DNA of 64,000 nucleotides from Christensenellaceae bacterium (GTDB lineage Bacteria; Bacillota; Clostridia; Christensenellales; Borkfalkiaceae): positions 90,734-154,733 of the forward strand of contig JAZNFS010000033.1 in NCBI GenBank assembly GCA_045589175.1, written 5' to 3'. Shown here one piece after another: positions 2,808 through 49,321 of this stretch. How positions within the stretch are numbered: the stretch's first letter is position 1; each line of letters begins with the position of its first letter. A model generated the notes under the pieces. The model saw only the letters and a list, made by a program, of their open reading frames with translations, was not told the DNA's origin and ran no database searches. A program made the translations under genes and the position numbers.

Positions 2808-3788
2808 ATGAAAGTATTTAAAAAAATAAGCGCTCTTTTTATTTGTTTTGCGCTTTTGTTTGCCTCCGCTTGTAACACAAGCGATCCTATAGTTTCTAAT
2901 ATGTTTGCTTCTCAATACTGGCTTTCTAATACAGAAGCCGAAATTGGCGAAATCAATGAAACTAGTGTTTATACACTTTCTTTCGTTGAAGCAGAAGTGG
3001 AAGAAGGCGAAACCAAATTAACCTCAACTTTAAGTGGAACTTTCACAACGAATATTCAAAATTCAACTTATAAAGGTCAATCTTGTTACAAGTTTACAAC
3101 CTCACTTTCTTCAAGTGGAAATTACTCTTACGGTGATAAAACGGTTGATTTTAACGATACGATTACTTCCACCGTTTACTTTTTAGGAATTTCTGCAAAA
3201 TTTTTCCCACTTTATAGTGAAAAAACAGTTAAAACTACTGCGCCAACAAAAATTTCGGGCTTTGACTTTGTATCCCTTGAATATTCGGTTACAACTACTT
3301 ACAATAAAGAAGAAAAATCGGCTTTTGTTAAAGTTACTTCAAACGCGGCAGAAGATGCCCCATATAAGGTTGCCGAAAGCGAAAAAACCTATACGAAACT
3401 AAACAAAAACGGTGCTTATTTTGATAACGAAAGTTTAATTTTTATTCCACGCGCAAGTGATTTATTATCGGGTTTTTCAGCTTCTTTTAATACGATTGAC
3501 GCACCTTCTCAAGAATTTCATAATATGCATCTTGCAGTATCGTCAACTGCGCCAACTAGCGAAATTAAACTTGATGATTACACTATTGACAACGTAAAAG
3601 CTCCTCAAACCTTTAACTGCTATAATGCAACCATTTCAATTAATAGCACGTTTTCAGGTTTACCATTAAAACTATATTACTCTGCCGATGCAAAAACTCA
3701 CGGCAAGCGCCTTGTTAAAATGGAAACCGAACTTGGTTACTCTCTTGGCAAGATAGTTTATACTTTACAGTCTATAACTCACGCTTAA
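2808..3788 (+). CDS. Hypothetical lipoprotein
   Basis: Internal ATG at 2808 follows an AGGTG RBS. The signal peptide MKVFKKISALFICFALLFASAC carries a lipobox. The rest is Ser/Thr-rich with no recognisable domain. Confidence 0.6.
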   Translation: MKVFKKISALFICFALLFASACNTSDPIVSNMFASQYWLSNTEAEIGEINETSVYTLSFVEAEVEEGETKLTSTLSGTFTTNIQNSTYKGQSCYKFTTSLSSSGNYSYGDKTVDFNDTITSTVYFLGISAKFFPLYSEKTVKTTAPTKISGFDFVSLEYSVTTTYNKEEKSAFVKVTSNAAEDAPYKVAESEKTYTKLNKNGAYFDNESLIFIPRASDLLSGFSASFNTIDAPSQEFHNMHLAVSSTAPTSEIKLDDYTIDNVKAPQTFNCYNATISINSTFSGLPLKLYYSADAKTHGKRLVKMETELGYSLGKIVYTLQSITHA

Positions 3789-4006
3789 TTATTTATCATA
3801 CGAAGGAAATTATGGAACAAGCTCCTCAGCCCCAACCGCGTGGCAATTTTAAAACTTATTTTTATCACAATTTAAATATACGCAAATAGCGATCCTTTAA
3901 CTTCATTGCCACCAATGAAATATTTTGCGTTCGCTTTTTTGCGAGCGCTTTTTTATTGCTTTTTATTGATATAAAAGCAAAATCTAATAAGGAATAGGTA
4001 ATATCA

Positions 4007-5401
4007 ATGGATGAATTAAAGGAAAACGAGTTATTAACTCAAGAATTTTCTCAAGAAATAGTACAAATAGTACGTGAAAATTCAGGTGAAAATTTACGCG
4101 AGTTGCTTAGCGACTATCACGAAAACGATATAGCCGAAGCTTTAGAACTTTTATCCCCACAAGAACGTAAAAAACTTTATAACACCTTAAGTGACGAAAC
4201 TTTATCTGAAATTTTTGCCTTTTTAGAAAATCCTGCTCCATTCGTTGAAGAACTTTCAAACGAAAAGGTTGCCGACATTATAGAAAACATGGCTTCAGAC
4301 GATGCCGTTGACCTTTTAGAAGAACTTGACGAAGACAAACAACGCGACCTTATTGAACTCTTAGACGAGGAAGTAGCGCACGACGTTGAACTTATCAATG
4401 CTTATAACGACGAAGAGATAGGTAGCTTGATGACAAACGACTTCGTTTGCGTTAACCAAAACTTAAGCGTTAAAAACGCAATGAAAAAGGTTGTAAAAGA
4501 TGCTGGCGAAAACAACAATATTTCCACTATTTTCGTAACCGATGACAACGGCGTTTATAAAGGTGCCTTTTATCTTCGCGATCTTGTTATTGCGCGAAGC
4601 GAAACTCCGCTTGAAAAAATTATAATAGGTTCGTTCCCTCATGTTTATGCTTTTGATAAAATTGACGATCGCCTTACCGATATAAAAGAGTATGCCGAAG
4701 CAATTTTGCCCATTTTAGATGCCGATAATCGCCTTATAGGCGCACTTACAAGTAGTGATATCGTTGAAGCAGTTGAAGAAGAACAGGCTGAAAACTATGC
4801 AAAACTTGCAGCTCTTCCAGAAGAAACCTTTGAAAGAACTGGTGCTAGCGGTATAATAAGAAATGCTTTTAGAAGACTACCTTGGCTTCTTATTTTGTTG
4901 TTTTTAAGTTTATTTATAGGCGCGTATATAGGGCTTTTTGAAAGCGCAATTATCGCTCTTCCTATATTAGTAAACTTCCAACAACTTATTTCGGGTATGA
5001 GCGGTAACGCTGGAACTCAAACTCTTGCAGTTACGGTTAAACTTTTAGATGATCCCGATTTAACTACAAAAGAAAAGATAAAGCACGTTTTAAACGAAAT
5101 TAGAATTGGCCTTATAATAGGTATTGTTACCGGCTTTATATCAGCGATAGCCATTAGCGCTTACGCCTATATAACTTCAAACGATCCATCCTTTTTAACC
5201 GCCCTTAACGTTGGTGGAGCGGTTGGTCTTGCAATGTTAGCGTCATCAACCACCTCAACCTTAACGGGCTGTATAATTCCTATCACTTTAGATAAATTAA
5301 AAATCGACCCTGCAACCGCAAGCGGACCACTTATTACTACGCTTAACGACTTTATTGCAATAACCGTTTACTACGGAATCGCTCTGTTAATCTTGTTGTA
5401 A
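4007..5401 (+). CDS. mgtE: Magnesium transporter MgtE
   Basis: 464 aa. An acidic N-domain is followed by a CBS pair and a C-terminal TM domain with the MgtE-type segment SGMSGNAGTQTLAV. Confidence 0.85.
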   Translation: MDELKENELLTQEFSQEIVQIVRENSGENLRELLSDYHENDIAEALELLSPQERKKLYNTLSDETLSEIFAFLENPAPFVEELSNEKVADIIENMASDDAVDLLEELDEDKQRDLIELLDEEVAHDVELINAYNDEEIGSLMTNDFVCVNQNLSVKNAMKKVVKDAGENNNISTIFVTDDNGVYKGAFYLRDLVIARSETPLEKIIIGSFPHVYAFDKIDDRLTDIKEYAEAILPILDADNRLIGALTSSDIVEAVEEEQAENYAKLAALPEETFERTGASGIIRNAFRRLPWLLILLFLSLFIGAYIGLFESAIIALPILVNFQQLISGMSGNAGTQTLAVTVKLLDDPDLTTKEKIKHVLNEIRIGLIIGIVTGFISAIAISAYAYITSNDPSFLTALNVGGAVGLAMLASSTTSTLTGCIIPITLDKLKIDPATASGPLITTLNDFIAITVYYGIALLILL

Positions 5402-5509: not shown

Positions 5510-5526
5510 ATCCCTGTGTTTCTTCT

Positions 5527-6381
5527 TTAATTTTCTTCTTCGTAGTAGTAAGAATAATCTATACCATTCATAAAGATTTCACGGTCATCTATCTTGTCCG
5601 TTAAAGCATTTTTGATAAGAGCTAAAATATCACTATAATCAACAACACTTAATTTCATTGCTTCTAAATATTCAGTTTTATCAATTTTGCTCCAATCGAT
5701 ACATTTAGAAAGATTTTTCTTTAGTATTATATCTAACCAAATACGAGTAGTTCTGCCGTTGCCTTCCATAAAAGGATGCGCAACGTTCATTTCAACGTAT
5801 TTTTTTACGATTTCTTCTACTGTGTTTTCAGGCATTCTTTCAATAGTATTCAAAGTTTGCTCTAAATAACCAACACTTGCAAATACGAAACCACCCTTAC
5901 TAATATTTAACTTCCTAATTTGCCCTGCAAAATCGTATAAACCACCAAATAAATAAGAGTGGATTTGTTGCAAGCCGTTTATCGTTCCAACTTCAATATC
6001 ATTAATAAGACCACTTTCAAACATTTCGTAAGCCTTGTTCTTGCTTTGCTCGTCGATAGACGTGCCTTTTGTTTTAACCCATTTTAGAAATACGGCTGAC
6101 TTTTTGCTTGGAAGAATTGCTATAAGCAAATTAAGTCCGTCGTCATCTATAACGTCCGTCAAATATTTCTTGCCGTCTTTAGCCGTTAATTTCAGTTGTC
6201 TACAAATTGATGACAACTGATTATTTCTCTTTTTTAAGGTGTTCCAATATTTACGTGGAGAAGTGCTTAAAGAAAGGGCTTCTATAATATCAACTGCACA
6301 CAACCACCAATGAGAACTTTCTTCATCCCACACAGAACGAACAGGAACATTATCAAAAAATCTAATAGACGTTTTAATCAT
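5527..6381 (-). CDS. Fic/Doc family protein (AMPylase-type) with an N-terminal Bro-N-like domain
   Basis: The Fic motif [12 protein letters not shown] is present. The N-terminus ([30 protein letters not shown]) resembles the Bro-N phage antirepressor domain. Confidence 0.75.
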
Positions 6382-6589
6382 TTTTATCCTCGCTCACGAT
6401 TTCTAATATATCGTTTAAACCGCAATCAAGGGCGTTGCATATTTTAAAAAGTATATCCATATGCACGGTTTCGTTTCTACCAAGTTTCGCCATAGCGGTA
6501 GTAGTGATACCCGCTTTTAAGCGTAGGTCCTCTTTACGCATATCTCTATCAATAAGAATTTTCCATAATTTTTTATAACTTGCAGCCAT
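6374..6589 (-). CDS. XRE-family helix-turn-helix transcriptional regulator
   Basis: 71 aa with an HTH signature ([21 protein letters not shown]). Its 3' end overlaps the Fic gene start by 8 nt. Confidence 0.7.
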
Positions 6590-41079: not shown

Positions 41080-42015
41080 ATGTTTGATAATATACTTGAG
41101 CAAATTAAAAATCACGATACAATAATCATTCACCGCCACACCAAGCCCGACGGCGACGCACTCGGCTCGCAGATAGGCTTAAAGCACCTTATTAAACACA
41201 ATTTTCCCAACAAAAAAGTGTTTGTCGTTGGCGATATGACCGAGCGTTATTCCTTTATTAACGACTGTGTAATGGATGAAATTGACGATAGCGTATATAG
41301 CGATGCTCTCGCCTTTGTTTTAGACCTTTCTGCTCCACATTTGGTATCCGACGAAAGATATAAATTAGCAAAAACAACCGTTCGTATCGACCATCACCTT
41401 TTTATTGAAAAGTTTTGCGATATAGAAGTTACGGACAGTAGTTTTGAAAGTTGCGCAGGGCTTATTGCGTACTTTGCCAAGAGCTGTAATCTTGGTTTAA
41501 ACGCGCAAAGCGCAAGCGCGCTATATACGGGAATGGTAACCGATTCTGGCCGTTTTAGATATGATTCAACCACTTCACGAACCTTTGAAGTTGCATCTTT
41601 TTTATTAACCGTTCCTTTTTCGTTAACCGATATATACGTAAACCTTTACGCCGACGATTTTGAGTTTATAAAACTTCGCGCAAGCTTTATTTTAAAAATT
41701 AATTTTACAGATAAAAAGGTTGCATATATCTATACTACTAAAGAAGAAATGGCTAAGCTTAACAAAGATACTTTTACTATTTCACGCGGAATGGTTAATA
41801 CTATGTCCGATTTAAAGGGCGTTGACGTTTGGGTTAACTTTACCGAAACTGAAGATGCTGTTCTTTGCGAAATTCGCTCGTCAAAGTATAACATTAACCC
41901 CATTGCTGTTAAGTACGGCGGTGGCGGACACGCAAAAGCAAGCGGAGCAACCCTACCCAACAAACAAACCGCTATGGCGCTACTTAACGACTTAAACGAC
42001 TTAATTGTAGAATAA
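41080..42015 (+). CDS. nrnA: DHH-family bifunctional oligoribonuclease / pAp phosphatase
   Basis: DHH motifs HRHTKPDGDALGS and IDHH, plus the DHHA1 segment GGGHAKASGA. Confidence 0.8.
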   Translation: MFDNILEQIKNHDTIIIHRHTKPDGDALGSQIGLKHLIKHNFPNKKVFVVGDMTERYSFINDCVMDEIDDSVYSDALAFVLDLSAPHLVSDERYKLAKTTVRIDHHLFIEKFCDIEVTDSSFESCAGLIAYFAKSCNLGLNAQSASALYTGMVTDSGRFRYDSTTSRTFEVASFLLTVPFSLTDIYVNLYADDFEFIKLRASFILKINFTDKKVAYIYTTKEEMAKLNKDTFTISRGMVNTMSDLKGVDVWVNFTETEDAVLCEIRSSKYNINPIAVKYGGGGHAKASGATLPNKQTAMALLNDLNDLIVE

Positions 42016-42055
42016 ATAGCATGAGATGACTCGACTTGCGCGTAATCACAACGCA

Positions 42056-42103
42056 TTCTCCTTCCACCGCTAAAGCGGTCCCCCTTCCTCCCGGAGGACG
42101 GCT
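42056..42103 (+). repeat. GC-rich repeat, type B copy 1 (TTCTCCTTCCACCGCTAAAGCGGTCCCCCTTCCTCCCGGAGGACGGCT)
   Basis: Carries two short hairpins (ACCGC-TAAA-GCGGT and TCCTC-CCG-GAGGA). Near-identical copies lie at 42616 and 44721. Confidence 0.6.
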
Positions 42104-42161
42104 AATTTATATAAGCAAAATAAAAAAAAATATAGTTAATTAAAAAGGTTTTATATAAATA

Positions 42162-42539
42162 ATGTCGCTTGATTATAATAAAAAAAATATAACACTTGCA
42201 AAAAATTTACGCAAGAATGCAACGCCTCAAGAGAATCATTTATGGTATGACTTTTTATCAAAATATGATATTAGGTTTCAGCGACAAAAAGCAATAGATA
42301 ATTTTATTGCAGACTTTTATTGTCATAAAGCAAAACTTGTTATAGAAATTGACGGTTCGCAACATTATACCGAAAAGGGGAAAAGTCAAGACTTTTTTAG
42401 AACCGAGATTTTAGAGGAATATAATTTACAAGTTATACGATTTACAAACTTCGATATTGATTCCAACTTTCAGGGCGTATGCGAGTATATCGACAAAGTA
42501 GTAAAGCAAAATATTATAAACTATAAAAAGCGAATTTAA
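42162..42539 (+). CDS. DUF559 (Vsr-like endonuclease fold) protein
   Basis: Carries the ATPQENHLW..FQRQKAI.NFIADFYC..AKLVIEIDGSQH..VIRF pattern typical of the DUF559 family. Confidence 0.65.
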   Translation: MSLDYNKKNITLAKNLRKNATPQENHLWYDFLSKYDIRFQRQKAIDNFIADFYCHKAKLVIEIDGSQHYTEKGKSQDFFRTEILEEYNLQVIRFTNFDIDSNFQGVCEYIDKVVKQNIINYKKRI

Positions 42540-42542
42540 GTT

Positions 42543-42593
42543 AAGGCTCCTTCGGGGAGGGAGCTGGCGCGTATGAGACTGAGGGAGAATGCC
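42543..42593 (+). repeat. GC-rich repeat, type A copy 1 (AAGGCTCCTTCGGGGAGGGAGCTGGCG...GAGGGAGAATGCC)
   Basis: GCUCC-UUCGGGGAG-GGAGC hairpin containing a UUCG loop. Second copy at 42707. Confidence 0.55.
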
Positions 42594-42615
42594 CTTTACG
42601 TGCTTTTAATTTTTT

Positions 42616-42667
42616 CGCTTTCTCCTTCCACCGCTGAAGCGGTCCCCCTTCCTCCCGGAGGACGGCT
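42616..42667 (+). repeat. GC-rich repeat, type B copy 2
   Basis: 50/52-nt identity with copies 1 and 3. Confidence 0.6.
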
Positions 42668-42706
42668 TGGAAAATTTTGCTTAGACTTACATTATTAGTA
42701 TAAAAT

Positions 42707-42757
42707 AGGCTCCTTCGGGGAGGGAGCTGGCGTGCAAACGCCTGAGGGAGAGTGCCA
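42707..42757 (+). repeat. GC-rich repeat, type A copy 2
   Basis: Near-identical to 42543-42593 over the first 27 nt and the last 13 nt. Confidence 0.55.
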
Positions 42758-42845
42758 TTTTGCTTTTAAACGCGTTTTAAAATAGAAAAAGTTAAAAAAC
42801 AAAAACGGCTTTGTAATAATACCAAAGTCCAAAAAGGTATAAAAT

Positions 42846-43829
42846 ATGAACGAACAAATAATGCAAAGCATTTTGCAAAAAATTAAAGATTACCAAAGTA
42901 TAATGATATTCCGCCATATTCGTATGGATGGTGACTGTACTGGCGCAACAAAGGGCTTTAAGGATATTTTAACCGCATCTTTTCCCGAAAAAGACGTTTA
43001 TTTAATTGACCCAAGCCAAAGTAGCGAATTTTTAGCCTTTTTAGGTAGCGATGATGAAGACGTAAGCGACGAAATTTATGCAAAATCGCTTGCTATAGTT
43101 TTAGATACCGCTTCGCTTGACAGAATTTCTAATAAAAAATACGCCCTTTGCAAAGAGATTATAAAAATAGACCACCATATCAATATCACGCCCTACGGTG
43201 ATTTAAGTTGGGTTGAAGAAGAGCGCTCTTCTACTTGCGAAATGATAACTCATTTTTACAAAACCTTTAAAGATGAGCTTAAAATAACTAAAGAGGGAGC
43301 AAAATATCTTTTCACAGGTATGGTAACCGATTCTGGCCGTTTTAGATATCGTGAAGTTTCGGGCGAAACCATGCGACTTGCCGGCTTTTTATTAGATACG
43401 GGCATCGATACCGATACACTTTACGCACACCTTTATATGCAAACTAAAGAAAGTATGATTTATAAAGGCTATATTTTAAAAAATATGAAGGTAACCGAAA
43501 ACGGCGTTGCTTACTTTTACGTATCAAACAAAACTCAAGAAAAACTTGGTTTATCGCGCGAAGATGCAAGCGCCGGTGTTTCAGCTCTTGAAAATATTGA
43601 AAACTGCTTGATTTGGATTGCTTTTATTGAAAACGAAGATAAATCAATCCGTGTGCGCCTACGCTCACGCTTTATAACTGTTAACGATATAGCCGAAAAA
43701 TATCACGGTGGTGGGCATTCTTGCGCGAGTGGAGCAACCGTTTATAGCAAAAAAGAACTAAAAGCCTTAATTGACGACGCTGACGCTAAACTAAAAGAAT
43801 ATAAAGAAAATAACGAGGGCTGGCTATGA
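42846..43829 (+). CDS. Second DHH-family phosphoesterase (NrnA paralog)
   Basis: DHH motifs FRHIRMDGDCTG and IDHH, plus GGGHSCASGA. Shares TGMVTDSGRFRY with the upstream nrnA. Confidence 0.75.
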   Translation: MNEQIMQSILQKIKDYQSIMIFRHIRMDGDCTGATKGFKDILTASFPEKDVYLIDPSQSSEFLAFLGSDDEDVSDEIYAKSLAIVLDTASLDRISNKKYALCKEIIKIDHHINITPYGDLSWVEEERSSTCEMITHFYKTFKDELKITKEGAKYLFTGMVTDSGRFRYREVSGETMRLAGFLLDTGIDTDTLYAHLYMQTKESMIYKGYILKNMKVTENGVAYFYVSNKTQEKLGLSREDASAGVSALENIENCLIWIAFIENEDKSIRVRLRSRFITVNDIAEKYHGGGHSCASGATVYSKKELKALIDDADAKLKEYKENNEGWL

Positions 43830-44551
43830 GAATACTTATAACCAACGACGACGGTATAAACGCTCCCGCGCTTAAACCGCTTGCTAAGTGGGCTAAAAAA
43901 CACGGCGAAGTTACTGTGGTTGCTCCAAAGGTTGAACAAAGCGGAAAGAGTCACGGCATTGAAATTATAAAGGCAATGGAAATTAAAAAGGTTGAATTTA
44001 CTAGTGGCATTGAAGCTTATTCGGTTGATTCTACCCCTGCCGATTGCGTAAGATTTGGTATTATCGGGCTTAAGCGCGATTACGATTTGGTTATTTCGGG
44101 CATAAATCGCGGATATAATTTAGGCAAAGATATTGTTTATTCGGGTACTATTGGCGCAATTTTTGAGGCAAGCGGACTTGGTATTAAATCGGTGGCGCTT
44201 TCTACCGCACCCGATAGTTTAGATAATGCTCTTTCACTTTTAGATGAAGTTTATGAGTTTTTTGTTTACAATAAATTGCTTGATAAAAACCCAATTTATA
44301 ACGTAAACTTACCAAGTTTAAAATGTAAAGGAATTAAAATTACTAAAACCGGTGGCGGTTATTATTCTGATGATTTTAAAGAAGTTTCGCCTAATATGTT
44401 CGTCCAAGTTGGAAAAATGATTTGGGATGATAAAAACGATATGAATATTGATACCGATGCCACAATGCACGGTTACGTATCGATTACTCCCCTTTCTAGT
44501 GAACGCACTGAAATTAGAGTGTATAACGAGCTAAAAGTTTTAAACGATTAA
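43826..44551 (+). CDS. surE: 5'/3'-nucleotidase SurE
   Basis: MRILITNDDGINAPAL signature. Confidence 0.9.
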   Translation: MRILITNDDGINAPALKPLAKWAKKHGEVTVVAPKVEQSGKSHGIEIIKAMEIKKVEFTSGIEAYSVDSTPADCVRFGIIGLKRDYDLVISGINRGYNLGKDIVYSGTIGAIFEASGLGIKSVALSTAPDSLDNALSLLDEVYEFFVYNKLLDKNPIYNVNLPSLKCKGIKITKTGGGYYSDDFKEVSPNMFVQVGKMIWDDKNDMNIDTDATMHGYVSITPLSSERTEIRVYNELKVLND

Positions 44552-44720
44552 TCTCTTTTAATTAAATATTATAGCACGGTAGAATATCGTTATGGTCAAA
44601 TGATAAACTACCGTGCTTTTTTATTGTTTTGGTTGTTATATTTTTTTTGAGACCTTTCGACTGACGCTCAAGGTGACATTACAATGCTCAACATGACAAA
44701 AGAAAAAGCGCGGTGTATAA

Positions 44721-44772
44721 CGCTTTCTCCTTCCACCGCTAAAGCGGTCCCCCTTCCTCCCAGAGGACGGCT
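44721..44772 (+). repeat. GC-rich repeat, type B copy 3 (followed by TTTTTT)
   Basis: CGCTTTCTCCTTCCACCGCTAAAGCGGTCCCCCTTCCTCCCAGAGGACGGCT. Confidence 0.6.
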
Positions 44773-44797
44773 TTTTTGGGGGTGGCATTATAAAAGA

Positions 44798-44830
44798 AAA
44801 AAGCAAGTGCGGTTGGGCACTTGCTTTTTG
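44798..44830. terminator. Bidirectional intrinsic terminator
   Basis: AGCAAGTGCGGTTGGGCACTTGCT flanked by A- and T-runs. Confidence 0.6.
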
Positions 44831-44869: not shown

Positions 44870-47800
44870 TTAGTAGTAAATAACTTCGATTGCTGTTATT
44901 CTAGCTTGACCGTTCGTTGCACTACCTGTATTGCCTACGCCAAAGGTTGTTGTTGTTGCATTAACTGTTACAACTGTTCCGCTAGTAATATTGCTACCAT
45001 TATGTGTTAAACAGCCACTGTTGTTTACTACATATGTAATTTTTACTGATTTAATAGTTTTACCATTAGCTGCACTTATTGTAAGTTCTGCAGATTCAGA
45101 TTGATATAAACGCCAGTTTGTGCCAGATGTATAGTATTTACCACTATTGCCGCCACCGTTTACTGTAACACTAATATTATTATCCATTGTCATGGTTGTA
45201 TATTGTGTACCATTCTCCCAACCATTTGCACTAGCATAATTAGCAATTGAAACAGTTATTTCTGTTTCTTGTACGCCAGCTTGCTTTCCACATACACAAC
45301 TACCACTTGATAAGTCGTGTTCTTCAGTTTCTAACGGAGCATTACAAATTGAACATGGCTTCCAGTGGTTACTATCATCAGAACCCCAAGTACTTGAAGC
45401 AACGCATTCATGTTTATCAATATCTAGTAATGTACAACCATTAAATTCAATAGTTGCATAATAGTTTAATATTTTACCAGTAGCAGTAATTGTATCGCCA
45501 ACAGAAACTCTATCAATACCATCACCAGCTAATTTATAACATTTAACTACATAATCACTATGATTTAAAATTTTAATATCAACAGTAATACTAGTTGCAT
45601 TTGGTGTATATGCATAGCTAATATTATCAACTACACCAACTAAAGTAACTTGATTAGGATAAGTTGTTGTATTATTATTTTTATCAGCAATTGCAAATAT
45701 GTCAGCTAACAAATCGCCAGTTGCTATAGTTTCTTTGTGTGATTCATCATTTCCACAAACACGAACGTGAGTGTCGTTTTCTGCAGGAGTCCATGCGCCA
45801 TATTTGTGACCTAAAGCAGGAGCTAAAACTTTTTCACATACTTCACATTTTTGAGCTGTTTCACAAGTAGCAGCCGCACCAGGAGTATGAGCTACCTTTT
45901 CATCTGCAAGATCACTACATACTGTACAAGCGTGCCAATGGTTGTCACCGTCTGATGACCAATCTTCTGAAGCGGTGTGACCAGTTTCAGGAACCTCATC
46001 TTTGTGTTTAGTTGATTGGCAACCTTCAAAGTTACAATGGTAAACAGTATAACCAGCTTCTGTACAAGTAGGAGCAACAGTTTCGCCCTTTACTGAGAAA
46101 TCACAAGTGTGTGATAATGCACGACAAGTTGTACATTTGTTATCTGCGCCGTAAACGTGAGCTTCTTTTTCAGTTGCAGGGTTACCGCAAGTTTCACATG
46201 CGTGCCAGTGACCTTCGCCATCGCTTGACCATTCAGCTGAAGCAACGTGATCAGCTAAAGGAAGTTCTTCTGTGCTAACTGTTTCGCCACAGTCATCACA
46301 AACAACAGTTATTGAGCCAGCTTCTGTGCAAGTAGCATCTTCTTGAGTTGTAGTAGTTTCAGCATGTGCACAAGGAATAACTTCGCCATAGAACTTACAA
46401 TAGAAACCTTCGTATGAAACTTTGCAAGGACCTACTGTTGTATACTTTTGATCGTTTCTTGTACCAAACCAGTAATCTTCATCATTAACTACAGCGATAA
46501 GAGTTTGCTTTTCTGAATCATATCTGTAAACAGTTGAAGCAGTTGCTTCGTAAGCACCATTTACATGCGTTCCGCTAACTACACAGTTAATATATAATTT
46601 TGATTCACCATTTAAAGTGTATAAGTAGTAACCACCTTCTGTAGCTTCAAGATATACGTCAATAGCTGCTTCTACGTTTTCAGTAGTAGCTAAATAGTAA
46701 CTATTCATACCACCAGCTAGGTAGTACATCTTGTCATCAAGATTGCCTTGAGCCATACCAAACTTGTATGCAGTTCCTACTACTGGAGCTTTAATTAAAC
46801 CAAATTCAGGAGCTTTATGCTCAAAAGCAATAATTGTTGCATTTTTGAATTGAATTGCATCGTTATAAGTGCTTAATTCACCATATAAGTAAACAATATC
46901 ACCAGCAACTGGTTTGAATGTCATATCAGCATAACCAACACCGCGTGGATCGTAAGAACCGTAAACAGTTACTTTTAATTGACGGTTTTCATCGGTTACA
47001 TACATGTTACCATATTGTGCATTGTAAACTTCGGTAACAGTAACTTTTGCAAAGAATTTGCCCGCTGGAACTTCTGTGAATGCAGCGATATCAGCAAGAT
47101 CTGTAGGTGCTGTAAATGAAACGATATCAGCATTCTTCATTTGAGCTGTACCGTTGTATTGACCCATAGGACCAACAACTTTTACGTAATCACCAACAAC
47201 TGGTTTGCTTTCCATTTCACCGTATTTCTTGCCGTTACCATCGTATAAACCGTAAATGTAAAGTTTATCGCCGTTGCCATCCATAATGTACATATTGCCG
47301 TATTGTGCACTTGCAATTTCAACAACAACACCTTCTGCGATGTATTTATCAGCAGTGTAAACGTTATGTGCTTGTGCAGAACCAATAGCATTAAGTTCTT
47401 TAATAGCTGTAGTAAATTTGTTTAATTCAACTTTAAATGATTTAGTTGCAGTTTCACCGTTTAAAGTAGCAGTTGCAACTAAAGTAACAGTTGTTTTTCC
47501 CTCAGGAAGAGTGAATGTTGCAGTACCTTCAGCGTTATCAATAACAACTGCATCTGATTCAGATGCCCAAGTAAATGTAACTTCTGGGAATAAAGAACCA
47601 ACCATTGTTAAGTTAACAACTTTATCACTATTTAAACTTTCAACACATTCAAGAGCTTCTAATTCGAAAGCAACTCTGCCTGCATCGTCTAATTCAGCAG
47701 CGGTAATGTAACGGAAGATAGTTGTAGAGAAGCCATCAACTGTGATAGTAGCTGTTAAGCAAGCTCTTTCCATATTGCCAGGGTTGATAACTAAGTTGCC

Positions 47801-49321
47801 TTGGTCAATAGCAAAAGATCTTGGTGTACCGATGATGCGGTAAGAAACTTCGCAACCTTCAAGTTCAGCAGGAAGATTTACGTTTTTAGCAAGTGCAACA
47901 ACTGCTGCATCTAAACCGTTTTCAGCAATAATAGCATCGATAGCAGCAACAGCCTTAGCAGCTGTTTTACCAGCGTAAACGGTGCCTTCTGGGTCAGCAG
48001 TGCCACCTTTAACAACTGCGCTTGCGCTTAATGGAGCGATTTGGTGACCTTTGTAGTTACCTAAAATACCTGTTACAGATACTACGTCGCCAACTTGTAA
48101 AGAGCTTTGTAAGCCGATAAGAGCTGAACAAGTAGCATCGCTTGTTTTATATGCGTATGCGCCTTCGTAATATTTTGAAATAACAACAGGAACGTCAACA
48201 CCGCCCTTTGTAAGAACGAATAAAGTTTGAGTTCCGCTTGATAAATCAGGAGTATCTTTAATTTCTTTTACAGTCCAGTTAGTAAGTGATACTAATCTTG
48301 ATTGATTGTAGTATGCAGATTGTAAGTTACCGATAATGTCGTTATCAACAGCGTAAACCTTTTCGCTTACGTTGATAGGAGCAACGTCGGTATCAACAAC
48401 TAAATTACCACCGGCGTTAGTTTCCATAAGGCCGTTGTAATCGGTGTTAATTGTTTCGGTAACGGTGATGTGAACGCCTGGTTGTAATAATGCTGCGTTT
48501 GCATCGTCTGTTTTAACGCGGTATAAGTAGTAACCAGCAGTGAAATCATCGTTAACCATATAAAGAGTTACGTTTTTGTATTCATCACTATATACTGTAC
48601 CGATTGTTACAACGTAACCACTCATAACGATACCTACACCGGTGTTAGTGTACCAATAGTCAACTTCTTGTAAAGGTTCTTTTTGTTCAGAAACAGTCAT
48701 TCTGTAGCTCTTGGTAGTGCTTACGCCGTTGTATGTGAAAGTAGCGTTAATTTTTACTTGTGGGTTAAGTGATGATGGGTAAACGTAGCAAGTTTTACCG
48801 TCTTCACTGATTTCAAGATAGTTTGCATATTCTTCGTCAACCGACCAAGCGATAGTAGCAGTGTGACCTTTAAATTCGCAAGAAGTATCAAGCGCGAAGT
48901 CTTCAACTACGGTGCCGTTGTTGTTAACAAAGTTGTAAGAACCACTAAAATCGTAAACGCTTAATGGATTAACGTAAACGGTAAAGGTTTTAGAAATTCT
49001 TTTAGATTTGAATAAAACTGTAAGGTCAACTTCCGTTCTTTCGGTAGGTAAACCAACTTTTGCAACGTATTGTCTTTCAATTCCATTTTCTTTGTCTGCT
49101 TCTACTTCTGTTAACGTAATTAAATCGCTATTAGAAGACCAGGTAGCTTTAAATTCGCCAATTGTGCCTGGAAGAACAAAGTCTTCTGAAATCGTTTGAC
49201 CATCTTTTTCAAAGATGTACATATCCAATGTTGCTTGAGGGTCTGTTTTGCTACAAGCTACTAAGCCGAAGCAAGAAAGAGCAAGAACAAGCGATAGGAT
49301 GACAAGTAGGGTTTTCTTCAT
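44870..49321 (-). CDS. 1483-aa surface lipoprotein with multiple OB-fold (nucleic-acid-binding-like) modules and Cys-rich HWHxCxxC repeats
   Basis: Lipobox LVAC. Repeated segments of the type AQYGNMY..DG....YG.Y...VGD.V.V.G....YN...Q.KNA resemble OB modules. SDGxxHWHACxxC occurs three times. Confidence 0.55.
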   Translation of the reverse strand: MKKTLLVILSLVLALSCFGLVACSKTDPQATLDMYIFEKDGQTISEDFVLPGTIGEFKATWSSNSDLITLTEVEADKENGIERQYVAKVGLPTERTEVDLTVLFKSKRISKTFTVYVNPLSVYDFSGSYNFVNNNGTVVEDFALDTSCEFKGHTATIAWSVDEEYANYLEISEDGKTCYVYPSSLNPQVKINATFTYNGVSTTKSYRMTVSEQKEPLQEVDYWYTNTGVGIVMSGYVVTIGTVYSDEYKNVTLYMVNDDFTAGYYLYRVKTDDANAALLQPGVHITVTETINTDYNGLMETNAGGNLVVDTDVAPINVSEKVYAVDNDIIGNLQSAYYNQSRLVSLTNWTVKEIKDTPDLSSGTQTLFVLTKGGVDVPVVISKYYEGAYAYKTSDATCSALIGLQSSLQVGDVVSVTGILGNYKGHQIAPLSASAVVKGGTADPEGTVYAGKTAAKAVAAIDAIIAENGLDAAVVALAKNVNLPAELEGCEVSYRIIGTPRSFAIDQGNLVINPGNMERACLTATITVDGFSTTIFRYITAAELDDAGRVAFELEALECVESLNSDKVVNLTMVGSLFPEVTFTWASESDAVVIDNAEGTATFTLPEGKTTVTLVATATLNGETATKSFKVELNKFTTAIKELNAIGSAQAHNVYTADKYIAEGVVVEIASAQYGNMYIMDGNGDKLYIYGLYDGNGKKYGEMESKPVVGDYVKVVGPMGQYNGTAQMKNADIVSFTAPTDLADIAAFTEVPAGKFFAKVTVTEVYNAQYGNMYVTDENRQLKVTVYGSYDPRGVGYADMTFKPVAGDIVYLYGELSTYNDAIQFKNATIIAFEHKAPEFGLIKAPVVGTAYKFGMAQGNLDDKMYYLAGGMNSYYLATTENVEAAIDVYLEATEGGYYLYTLNGESKLYINCVVSGTHVNGAYEATASTVYRYDSEKQTLIAVVNDEDYWFGTRNDQKYTTVGPCKVSYEGFYCKFYGEVIPCAHAETTTTQEDATCTEAGSITVVCDDCGETVSTEELPLADHVASAEWSSDGEGHWHACETCGNPATEKEAHVYGADNKCTTCRALSHTCDFSVKGETVAPTCTEAGYTVYHCNFEGCQSTKHKDEVPETGHTASEDWSSDGDNHWHACTVCSDLADEKVAHTPGAAATCETAQKCEVCEKVLAPALGHKYGAWTPAENDTHVRVCGNDESHKETIATGDLLADIFAIADKNNNTTTYPNQVTLVGVVDNISYAYTPNATSITVDIKILNHSDYVVKCYKLAGDGIDRVSVGDTITATGKILNYYATIEFNGCTLLDIDKHECVASSTWGSDDSNHWKPCSICNAPLETEEHDLSSGSCVCGKQAGVQETEITVSIANYASANGWENGTQYTTMTMDNNISVTVNGGGNSGKYYTSGTNWRLYQSESAELTISAANGKTIKSVKITYVVNNSGCLTHNGSNITSGTVVTVNATTTTFGVGNTGSATNGQARITAIEVIYY

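Follow-up and report, generated by a model that had tools for sequence, protein, structure and literature searches.

A folded DNA repeat accompanies a DUF559 nuclease gene in a Christensenellaceae genome and resembles the BoxC/PIT class of bacterial repeats

One class of short bacterial repeats goes under several names, BoxC (from the 1990s), PIT elements (Hoyne et al. 2000) and TM_ECO all denoting it (Holder et al. 2015, PMC4666352). TM_ECO follows the pattern CCCTCNCCC-N3-6-GGGNGAGGG-N3-GGGNGAGGG, is always intergenic, and comes as types A and B, of which every palindromic pair holds one each (PMC4666352). Its isolated strand forms a class II purine triplex in vitro, a kind of structure that RNA does not form, and its copies are associated with local genome variability and mark rearrangement hotspots (PMC4666352). 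Enterobacteria, cyanobacteria, Neisseria and other groups are rich in repeats of this class, which lack an assigned protein, mobility mechanism or function; the text of Holder et al. does not mention DUF559, endonucleases, Clostridia or Firmicutes (PMC4666352). Here we analyze 64,000 nt of contig JAZNFS010000033.1 from a Christensenellaceae bacterium (assembly GCA_045589175.1, positions 90,734 to 154,733 of the forward strand; this whole stretch is called the window), in which five copies of a short folded module lie at and near a gene for a DUF559 nuclease. With a probability that we put at roughly 0.55, the module is a structured repeat acting at the DNA level that travels with the nuclease and is probably acted on by it, by analogy with repetitive extragenic palindromic (REP) elements and the REP-associated tyrosine transposases (RAYTs). 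[quoted passage not shown]

All five window copies are intergenic. Three copies of what an initial annotation had called type B (42058-42103, 42622-42667 and 44727-44772) differ by 0-1 mismatch over 46 nt, and two of type A (42544-42597 and 42707-42760) share an identical leading 26 nt and are 85% identical over 54 nt. Shuffled sequence (dinucleotide shuffles for type B) held no match to either, and the repeats reach ~60-65% G+C in a window of ~35%; the annotated set of three plus two GC-rich, structured copies is thus borne out. It had been read as two families sharing one orientation. A covariance model, R1, built on 35 diverse copies from related loci, returned exactly five full-length matches in the 64 kb, two + strand hits to type A, scoring 51.6 and 55.5 bits, and three - strand hits to type B, scoring 36-40 bits. 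Since type A and reverse-complemented type B fit one model, they form one module rather than two families, and the copies are split, the two of type A facing one way and the three of type B the opposite way. Type A is the alpha subtype and reverse-complemented type B the beta subtype of a single folded DNA module of ~50 nt. A likeness between A and reverse-complemented B had been noticed over ~24 nt; the inverted relation holds, and the similarity runs through the whole length. A profile search with nhmmer missed the beta copies of the window, and our own scanners and the covariance model were used instead.

The gene in question, overlooked in the initial annotation although it is the key context, lies between the first B and the first A copy. 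B1 (beta, 42055..42106, - strand; 36.1 bits over its full length, an exact match to the 46-mer) stands 56 nt upstream of the DUF559 start and consists of hairpin 1 (GCCGTCCTC/GAGGAAGG), hairpin 2 (CCGC-TTTA-GCGG) and a tail, GGAAGGAG, that is the mirror of GAGGAAGG. A1 (alpha, 42541..42590, + strand; 51.6 bits) begins 2 nt past the DUF559 stop; its hairpin 2, GGCGCGTATGAGAC, is unpaired or degenerate here, where a sister strain has GGCGC-GTAT-GCGCC or GCGAC. The outer ends of B1 and A1, GCATTCTCC and GGAGAATGC, are exactly complementary over 9 nt. Linker L1 (42591..42618), seen in the sequence and conserved across repeat units, joins the tails of A1 and B2 (beta, 42619..42670, - strand; 37.4 bits, one mismatch to B1 over 46 nt). 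Linker L2 (42671..42703), defined by sequence and spacing, lies between the hairpin-1 sides of B2 and A2, a position corresponding to that of the DUF559 gene between B1 and A1. A2 (alpha, 42704..42753, + strand; 55.5 bits) has an intact hairpin 2, GGCG-TGCAAA-CGCC, a fold z-score of about -2.0 and no copy at the matching position in the sister strain. B3 (beta, 44724..44775, - strand; 40.2 bits) is solo, downstream of surE and of that operon's terminator; it is missing from the orthologous place in the related locus L092 and present in the sister strain. Start-to-start spacing is 90-91 nt from B to A and 72-74 nt from A to B, giving a 163-nt period.

Read in the canonical direction, the module runs AAAG(G/C)CTCCCTC, a 3-nt loop, GAGGGAG(C/G)TG, a stem-loop of free sequence and C(T/G)GAGGGAGT. 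It thus comprises an A-rich leader, hairpin 1 with its pyrimidine arm CTCCCTC and purine arm GAGGGAG, hairpin 2 and a purine tail. In the consensus and in folds, hairpin 1 is a 7-9 bp stem, CTCC(T/C)TC / GAGGGAG, with a 3-nt loop; the UUCG loop proposed earlier falls away, TTCG lying mostly inside the stem. Hairpin 2 is a 13-25-nt stem-loop whose stem is conserved and whose sequence is free. Alpha and beta are separated by few fixed differences, one of them a compensatory G-C / C-G swap in hairpin 1. Across 94 distinct sequences, 96.4% of cells are paired, a figure from an alignment fitted to the model and therefore favoring structure; double changes occur in 8 of 15 pairs, and covariation scores 0.272, compared with 0.089 for shuffles, with none of 500 shuffles reaching the observed value. 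Slid controls pair at 41-56%. When the hairpin-2 regions were folded separately, nearly all of 65 distinct sequences formed 4-8 bp stems, which supports the structure independently of the model-fitted alignment. Further copies elsewhere and covariation across copies, the two expectations that came with the initial annotation, were thus both found, and the annotated repeats stand in that respect.

The stems of hairpin 2 contain 711 Watson-Crick pairs against 10 G.T pairs. Stems so nearly pure in Watson-Crick pairs can fold on both strands, a pairing record that suits a DNA element better than a one-strand RNA. Taken alone, the fold energies of single copies lack significance (z +0.1 to -2.2), as computed with tools that consider Watson-Crick and wobble pairs and no others. 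The long A+B hairpin was considered as an RNA and reaches -52 kcal/mol with a z-score of only -1.4; the small-RNA idea was dropped. Neither the window repeats (at the gathering threshold or at E<=10) nor, at the gathering threshold, 15 related loci matched anything in Rfam 15, apart from one tRNA in the latter. The stable small RNA suggested initially thus finds no support, G.U pairs being few and the orientation to the neighboring gene not fixed. In a beta variant seen in L023 (622-680), L026 (3906-3964) and many other loci of the group at 65% identity, GGATGCGAGCAAAGCGAGCAGAC stands in place of hairpin 2 and has a direct repeat of GCGAGC instead of a stem; this variant folds poorly.

An intramolecular purine-motif triplex requires a purine tract that folds back antiparallel on the purine strand of a pyrimidine-purine hairpin. 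The 3' heptamer of the module co-varies with hairpin 1 (CTCCCTC/GAGGGAG/GAGGGAG, CCCCCTC/GAGGGGG/GGGGGAG, CTTCCTC/GAGGAAG/GAAGGAG), and 38 of 42 asymmetric distinct modules carry a tail that mirrors the purine arm, at 7/7 positions as against 5/7 for a direct repeat. Asymmetric variants form 6-7 of 7 triads, and in 15 asymmetric modules C-G*G / T-A*A triads are complete (7/7), whereas the tail, if Watson-Crick paired to the pyrimidine arm, would leave a mismatch. In sequence, the tail is compatible with an intrastrand triplex of the purine motif. A Watson-Crick switch, in which the tail would pair with the pyrimidine arm, was tried and rejected: it does equally well for symmetric heptamers and worse than the mirror for the CCCCCTC and CTTCCTC variants, and it survives solely within the RNA reading discussed below. 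Strict candidates returned by a generic triplex scanner across the 64 kb were A1 and A2 alone, the B copies failing its filter because of one hairpin-1 mismatch. To judge from layout, subtype pairing, intergenic position and instability, the modules belong to the BoxC/PIT class as a new variant that contains a hairpin, and are clostridial relatives of the repeats known from enterobacteria.

The gene bracketed by the inverted B1 and A1 (42162..42539, + strand) encodes a Vsr-like PD-(D/E)XK nuclease of 125 aa that matches Pfam PF04480 with 95.1 bits (cut-off 20.6; E 3e-27) and the structure PDB 3HRL (E 5.5e-9). Residues D51, E62, D64, H68 and others are invariant across 13 aligned sequences and all kept in the window protein, so that its putative catalytic core (D...ExD...H) appears intact. 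Among PD-(D/E)XK nucleases the protein falls in the Vsr/DUF559 clade, one member of which is a homing endonuclease. Relatives of the Vsr/I-Bth0305I type nick distorted or mismatched DNA or spread themselves by cleavage and repair. There are 7,897 homologues of the DUF559 protein, hundreds of them at ~80% identity, and those of NrnA fall steadily to 68%. The C-terminal tails of some DUF559 homologues (...SLREGGGPR, ...LPPGGSLW) are read-through into modules. Membership of a defense system was considered for DUF559 and set aside, PADLOC giving only weak domain-level matches. Related cassettes often sit in defense loci, for instance beside BREX pglX (L099, a Synechocystis plasmid) and, in metagenomic loci at 58-66% identity, between hsdS-like and hsdR genes of type I restriction-modification systems; there the 3' end of the upstream gene (...LMKKALMQEYFG*) recurs downstream of the cassette.

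The link between gene and module was followed in 80 metagenomic DUF559 loci, 52 of which had enough flank for distances to be counted. Modules lie directly beside the gene, often over its stop codon. Their density is 16.5/kb within 150 nt of DUF559 and 0.03-0.2/kb beyond 300 nt; overlapping and both-strand matches inflate the former figure, and the contrast is still large. At 300 nt or less a module was present in 50 of the 52 loci, and one alpha and one beta copy, inverted, bracket the gene in 33/41, in either polarity. In the group at 82% identity, a cassette of ~690 nt, comprising its own promoter region, the gene, beta and alpha, recurs within unrelated flanks.

At the window locus the cassette can be recognized as an insertion. 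The gene order is nrnA-like 1, B1, DUF559, A1, L1, B2, L2, A2, nrnA-like 2, surE, terminator, a further repeat called type C, and B3, and the block from 42016 to 42845 (B1, DUF559, A1, B2, A2 and linkers; ~830 nt) separates the two tandem nrnA-like genes. In relatives found through nrnA-like 1, the corresponding gap is 55 nt (L092, 85% amino-acid identity) or 1 nt (L093-L095, 74% identity), and neither DUF559 nor a module lies between the two genes in any of these four. These empty junctions identify the ~830-nt block as an insertion into the operon. Comparison of the occupied and empty sites shows that the modules entered with the DUF559 cassette, placed between two co-oriented nrnA genes, and that the window modules are flanks and local offshoots of that cassette. 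No target-site duplication was obvious, the sites being too diverged for base-level alignment at 85% amino-acid identity of the neighbors. The two nrnA-like (DHH/DHHA1) paralogues, 41080-42015 and 42846-43829, themselves share 36 nt at 94% identity (41527-41562 and 43314-43349, at the GMVTDSGRFRY motif).

Among ~185,000 species-representative genomes, the beta core was found in one, a Clostridia metagenome-assembled genome from sheep rectum with 7 exact matches. A contig of this genome (L003, the sister strain) holds the orthologous locus at 89-99% identity and with different numbers of units: A-B-A-B before DUF559, A-B after it, and, past surE, B-A-B with an additional Bro-N/Fic gene; the window has B before DUF559 and A-B-A after it. 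The sister units alternate A, B, A, B with the 163-nt period, and a blast search aligned them to the window, linkers included, at ~93% identity. The two strains differ in unit number at the same sites. The extra segment of the sister strain (L003 3017-4547, orthologous to window ~44552-44775) is ~1.4 kb long; its Bro-N/Fic gene (3382-4236) is bounded by beta copies at 3182-3233 and 4496-4547, the latter being the counterpart of B3, and has an 81%-identical paralogue in the window at 5526-6411 on the other strand.

The association is not confined to Clostridia. A tblastn search of plasmid records gave 24 matches in distant taxa, and nine loci at 31-41% identity were inspected (Synechocystis, Picosynechococcus, Pseudanabaena, two Deinococcus, Azospirillum, Photobacterium, Sinorhizobium and Sphingomonas). 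Inspection by eye showed BoxC-like motifs within ~150 nt of DUF559 in each of the nine, often as an inverted pair around the gene; a strict generic scanner recovered motifs at 7 of 10 loci, and shuffles yielded none. Over three 50-kb stretches, 12 of 19 triplex-type candidates fall within ~115 nt of the single DUF559 gene (D. psychrotolerans 2/2, S. meliloti 3/6, Sphingomonas 7/11), and in D. psychrotolerans the cassette splits paaD from paaZ. On the Sphingomonas plasmid (L110, 42395-42529), ~17 kb from DUF559, stands an inverted module pair (GGGGGACCGCCGCGAAGCGGTGGTGGAGGGG and GGTGGCAGGCCGAAGGCCTGACGGAGGGG) with a hairpin in the second connector; it resembles the clostridial beta and has weak R1 scores of 19.4 and 16.1 bits. 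In Escherichia coli K-12, the DUF559 gene ycjD ends in a degenerate motif, with a canonical TM_ECO type A 180 nt downstream. Between ycjD and fabI (L097, 297-520), the last ~45 nt of ycjD (GGAGACGGTGCTGGAGAATATTC...GAACCG) are duplicated ~120 nt downstream, ahead of the canonical TM_ECO, and look like the remnant of a second cassette end. The gene is present in 3,378 of 5,426 complete E. coli genomes; one strain without it that was examined has a different efflux operon in its place. In a sample of 60 genomes, near-identical TM copies elsewhere number ~2-5 with ycjD and fewer, 1-4, without it (none in 281 genomes), counts that are confounded by phylogroup and by the 28-mer requirement of megablast.

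These observations suggest a mechanism that would parallel the REP/REPIN elements and the RAYT enzyme. The module would fold when its DNA is single-stranded or torsionally stressed, into hairpins and possibly a purine-motif triplex; the Vsr-like DUF559 protein may recognize or nick the folded form; and repair against another copy, by gene conversion or unequal recombination, would spread, duplicate or delete units and carry the gene along. A broader proposal, which we hold tentatively and with less confidence than the local one, is that DUF559 proteins are dedicated partners of BoxC/PIT-type repeats throughout bacteria, structure-specific Vsr-like nucleases that would recognize the folded repeat and drive its spread and local rearrangement, as RAYTs do for REPs. 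The clostridial alpha and beta modules would then be one lineage of a bacteria-wide system.

Several findings weigh against coupling to the nuclease. The link between DUF559 and the modules is positional only, and the independent observations among the metagenomic loci number nearer 25 than 80, many being variants of a few lineages, notably in the type I restriction-modification context. The change in copy number between strains needs only homologous recombination between repeats and no enzyme. Modules also occur without the gene: at two places on another contig of the sheep-rectum genome (L001 and L002), with no DUF559 within 8 kb; in L094 and L095; and on upwards of 120 viral or prophage contigs, where the 740 kb around the modules holds no DUF559. 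Close DUF559 relatives were likewise not found on viral contigs. E. coli has ~23 TM_ECO copies for one ycjD, and genomes without ycjD keep copies. Nearly all such DUF559 genes have repeats and many repeats have no gene, so that the coupling is one-directional, as it is for RAYTs and REPs. As for the triplex, the common beta tail GGAAGGAG mirrors the arm GAGGGAGG at only 7/8 positions, and most heptamers are their own mirror, which leaves a minority of modules to separate a triplex from alternative pairing. Holder et al. did not detect the triplex in vivo, and E. coli PIT elements show no promoter or terminator activity and no gene association (PMC4666352). Some of the viral or prophage contigs (L119, 5780-6320, from IMG/VR; also L137 and L184) carry tandem arrays with a period of ~159 nt, in which an alpha module is joined to another conserved repeat (GTAGGGGCGATGAAAATCGCCCGCA...); there are up to 11 pattern matches per contig and no DUF559 nearby.

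The main rival takes the repeats as autonomous or passive and DUF559 as an unrelated selfish cassette that lands beside modules and does not mobilize them. Such target-site preference has precedents, IS1397 and ISKpn1 targeting REP and bacterial interspersed mosaic element (BIME) sequences, and it would account for the modules that lack the gene, in phage or prophage contigs and elsewhere, for the Bro-N/Fic gene flanked by B copies in the sister strain, and for the occurrence of DUF559 in either polarity relative to the module pair. The rearrangement hotspots at TM_ECO sites point the same way (PMC4666352). Yet the cassette of the 82%-identity group moves with its own beta and alpha into unrelated flanks, modules overlap the DUF559 stop codon in many lineages, the empty nrnA junctions lack gene and modules alike, and the association recurs in five further bacterial groups, each having a repeat sequence peculiar to it. 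We regard this alternative as unlikely, and as the most serious of those considered. A role in RNA is less likely still: the modules could be terminators, insulators, mRNA-stabilizing hairpins or translational switches of DUF559, with the pyrimidine arm as anti-Shine-Dalgarno sequence and the purine arm and tail as Shine-Dalgarno-like. Under RNA parameters the two hairpins do fold, the beta tail precedes the DUF559 start by 5-12 nt in some loci (L073, GGAAGGAGTTAACatg; L074), and TTT(T) comes after hairpin 1 when the opposite strand is read. Only B3 scores as terminator-like, with a 5-bp stem and T6, the other copies having 3-4 T at most, and a stronger terminator at 44565-44625 precedes it. 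The T-run after B3, noted initially as a mark of the third copy, is real; it is the complement of the A-rich leader (AAAAGCC...) of the module in general. Against an RNA, the modules take no fixed orientation to the gene, and alpha and beta always oppose each other, so that one of them is always antisense. Nor is there a match in Rfam; both strands fold equally well with almost no G.T pairs, which is unusual for a one-strand RNA, and PIT elements are silent as promoters or terminators and purine-motif triplexes foreign to RNA (PMC4666352). The orientation of modules to flanking genes on viral contigs (++ 7 vs -- 11, with 26 of 64 inside spurious long open reading frames) gave no usable signal, being too noisy because such frames arise in GC-rich contigs.

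The initial annotation had favored the degenerate inverted ends of a miniature element and offered the A+B pair at 42543-42667 as a MITE-like unit. A and B are indeed imperfect inverted repeats, the pair measures ~125-140 nt, the complementarity of the outer ends of B1 and A1 would suit terminal repeats, and copy number varies between strains, all as expected of a non-autonomous transposon served in trans by the transposase of an insertion sequence. The pair is a natural one, as the alternation in the sister strain and the 163-nt period confirm. No transposase gene was seen beside copies in the window region and the related loci inspected, where no systematic screen was made, and no target-site duplication is definable; the units stand in tandem arrays with conserved linkers, and the covarying hairpin 2 and mirror tail are kept beyond the needs of terminal repeats. 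A classical MITE thus seems very improbable, and the BoxC/PIT/TM class is the better fit. Hardest to credit is an antitoxin-like RNA in the manner of type III toxin-antitoxin systems, neutralizing the nuclease. Repeats do abut the nuclease gene on both sides and can form tandem arrays, but they are inverted rather than direct, their orientation to the gene varies, DUF559 has the Vsr-like fold of a DNA nuclease and not that of an endoribonuclease, and no PADLOC or type III toxin-antitoxin family matched. The preferred reading remains a DNA repeat paired with DUF559.

The surroundings of B3 hold further features. A third repeat family, type C (44649-44678 on the + strand, ~30-40 nt; GAGA(C/T)C(T/C)TTCGACTG...CTCA(A/G)G(G/A)TGACA), adjoins B3 and occurs also in L091 (2360-2629), L003 (4300-4480), the flanks of L001 and L002, and L092 (4400-4435), the last having type C without B3. 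In a third strain, 94% identical, contigs break at the nrnA junction inside type C arrays. In L093 (1080-1260 and 1349-1630), a gene for a 93-aa GIY-YIG nuclease lies beside an inverted pair resembling type C (GTCATTCTGAGG... and ...CTCAGGATGAC), which hints that other small nuclease genes may have repeat partners of their own. Beyond B3, a perfect 13-bp bidirectional terminator hairpin (44798-44829) divides the surE side from a - strand gene (44870-49321) for a lipoprotein-like product of 1,483 aa with many Cys/His-rich repeats; its middle (~45817-47671) is unalignable to the sister strain, and both ends align.

The coupling of DUF559 to the repeats merges two puzzles, the function of BoxC/PIT elements and the role of DUF559, into one testable hypothesis, and it spans gut Clostridia, Deinococcus, cyanobacteria, and alpha- and gamma-proteobacteria including E. 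coli K-12. The broader proposal, if true, would supply the mechanism and origin of a repeat class known since the 1990s without assigned function or enzyme, and a function for a very large domain family of unknown function. The finding extends that class to AT-rich Firmicutes and to a hairpin variant that existing triplex finders would miss. In addition, modules explain the spurious peptide tails on annotated DUF559 proteins and may be why contigs in gut metagenome assemblies often break.

Set beside the known systems, the window modules share with BoxC/PIT/TM_ECO a pyrimidine arm, a purine arm and a mirrored second purine block. They are likewise GC-rich and intergenic, with two subtypes in inverted pairs, and their copy number and surroundings differ among close strains (window, L003 and L090-L092). 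TM_ECO has a second loop of 3 nt, whereas here the connector is a covarying hairpin of 13-25 nt and it is loop 1 that measures 3 nt; as the published finder takes loops of 1-6 nt, the window modules would go unreported. Their arms are 7-8 nt long with A/T positions (CTCCCTC), compared to 9 nt in TM_ECO, the host genome is AT-rich and clostridial, unlike those of TM_ECO, and copies are few, with five in the window and 7 exact beta-core matches in one genome. Papers on the TM_ECO class name no associated protein; the clostridial modules are strongly associated with DUF559. With bacterial MITEs they have in common small size, an inverted-repeat pair, an intergenic position and presence or absence that differs between strains, and they depart from them in their conserved internal structure and fixed-period tandem arrays, the inverted arms being whole structured modules. 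The window protein belongs to the same PD-(D/E)XK clade as Vsr and the Vsr-like homing endonuclease I-Bth0305I; unlike Vsr, it has no cytosine methyltransferase among its checked neighbors, and, unlike I-Bth0305I, its gene lies outside any intron or intein. REP, BIME and REPIN elements are also short, structured and intergenic, with alternating orientation, regular spacing and conserved linkers, although no GTAG/CGTC tag of the REP kind was noted in the module consensus. The gene bracketed here encodes a Vsr-like PD-(D/E)XK protein of the DUF559 family (PF04480), of putative activity, and not an IS200/IS605-like Y1 HUH transposase like RAYT. As in REP/RAYT systems, an enzyme gene is bracketed by inverted copies, the repeats far outnumber the enzyme genes, and the repeat sequences are specific to each lineage.

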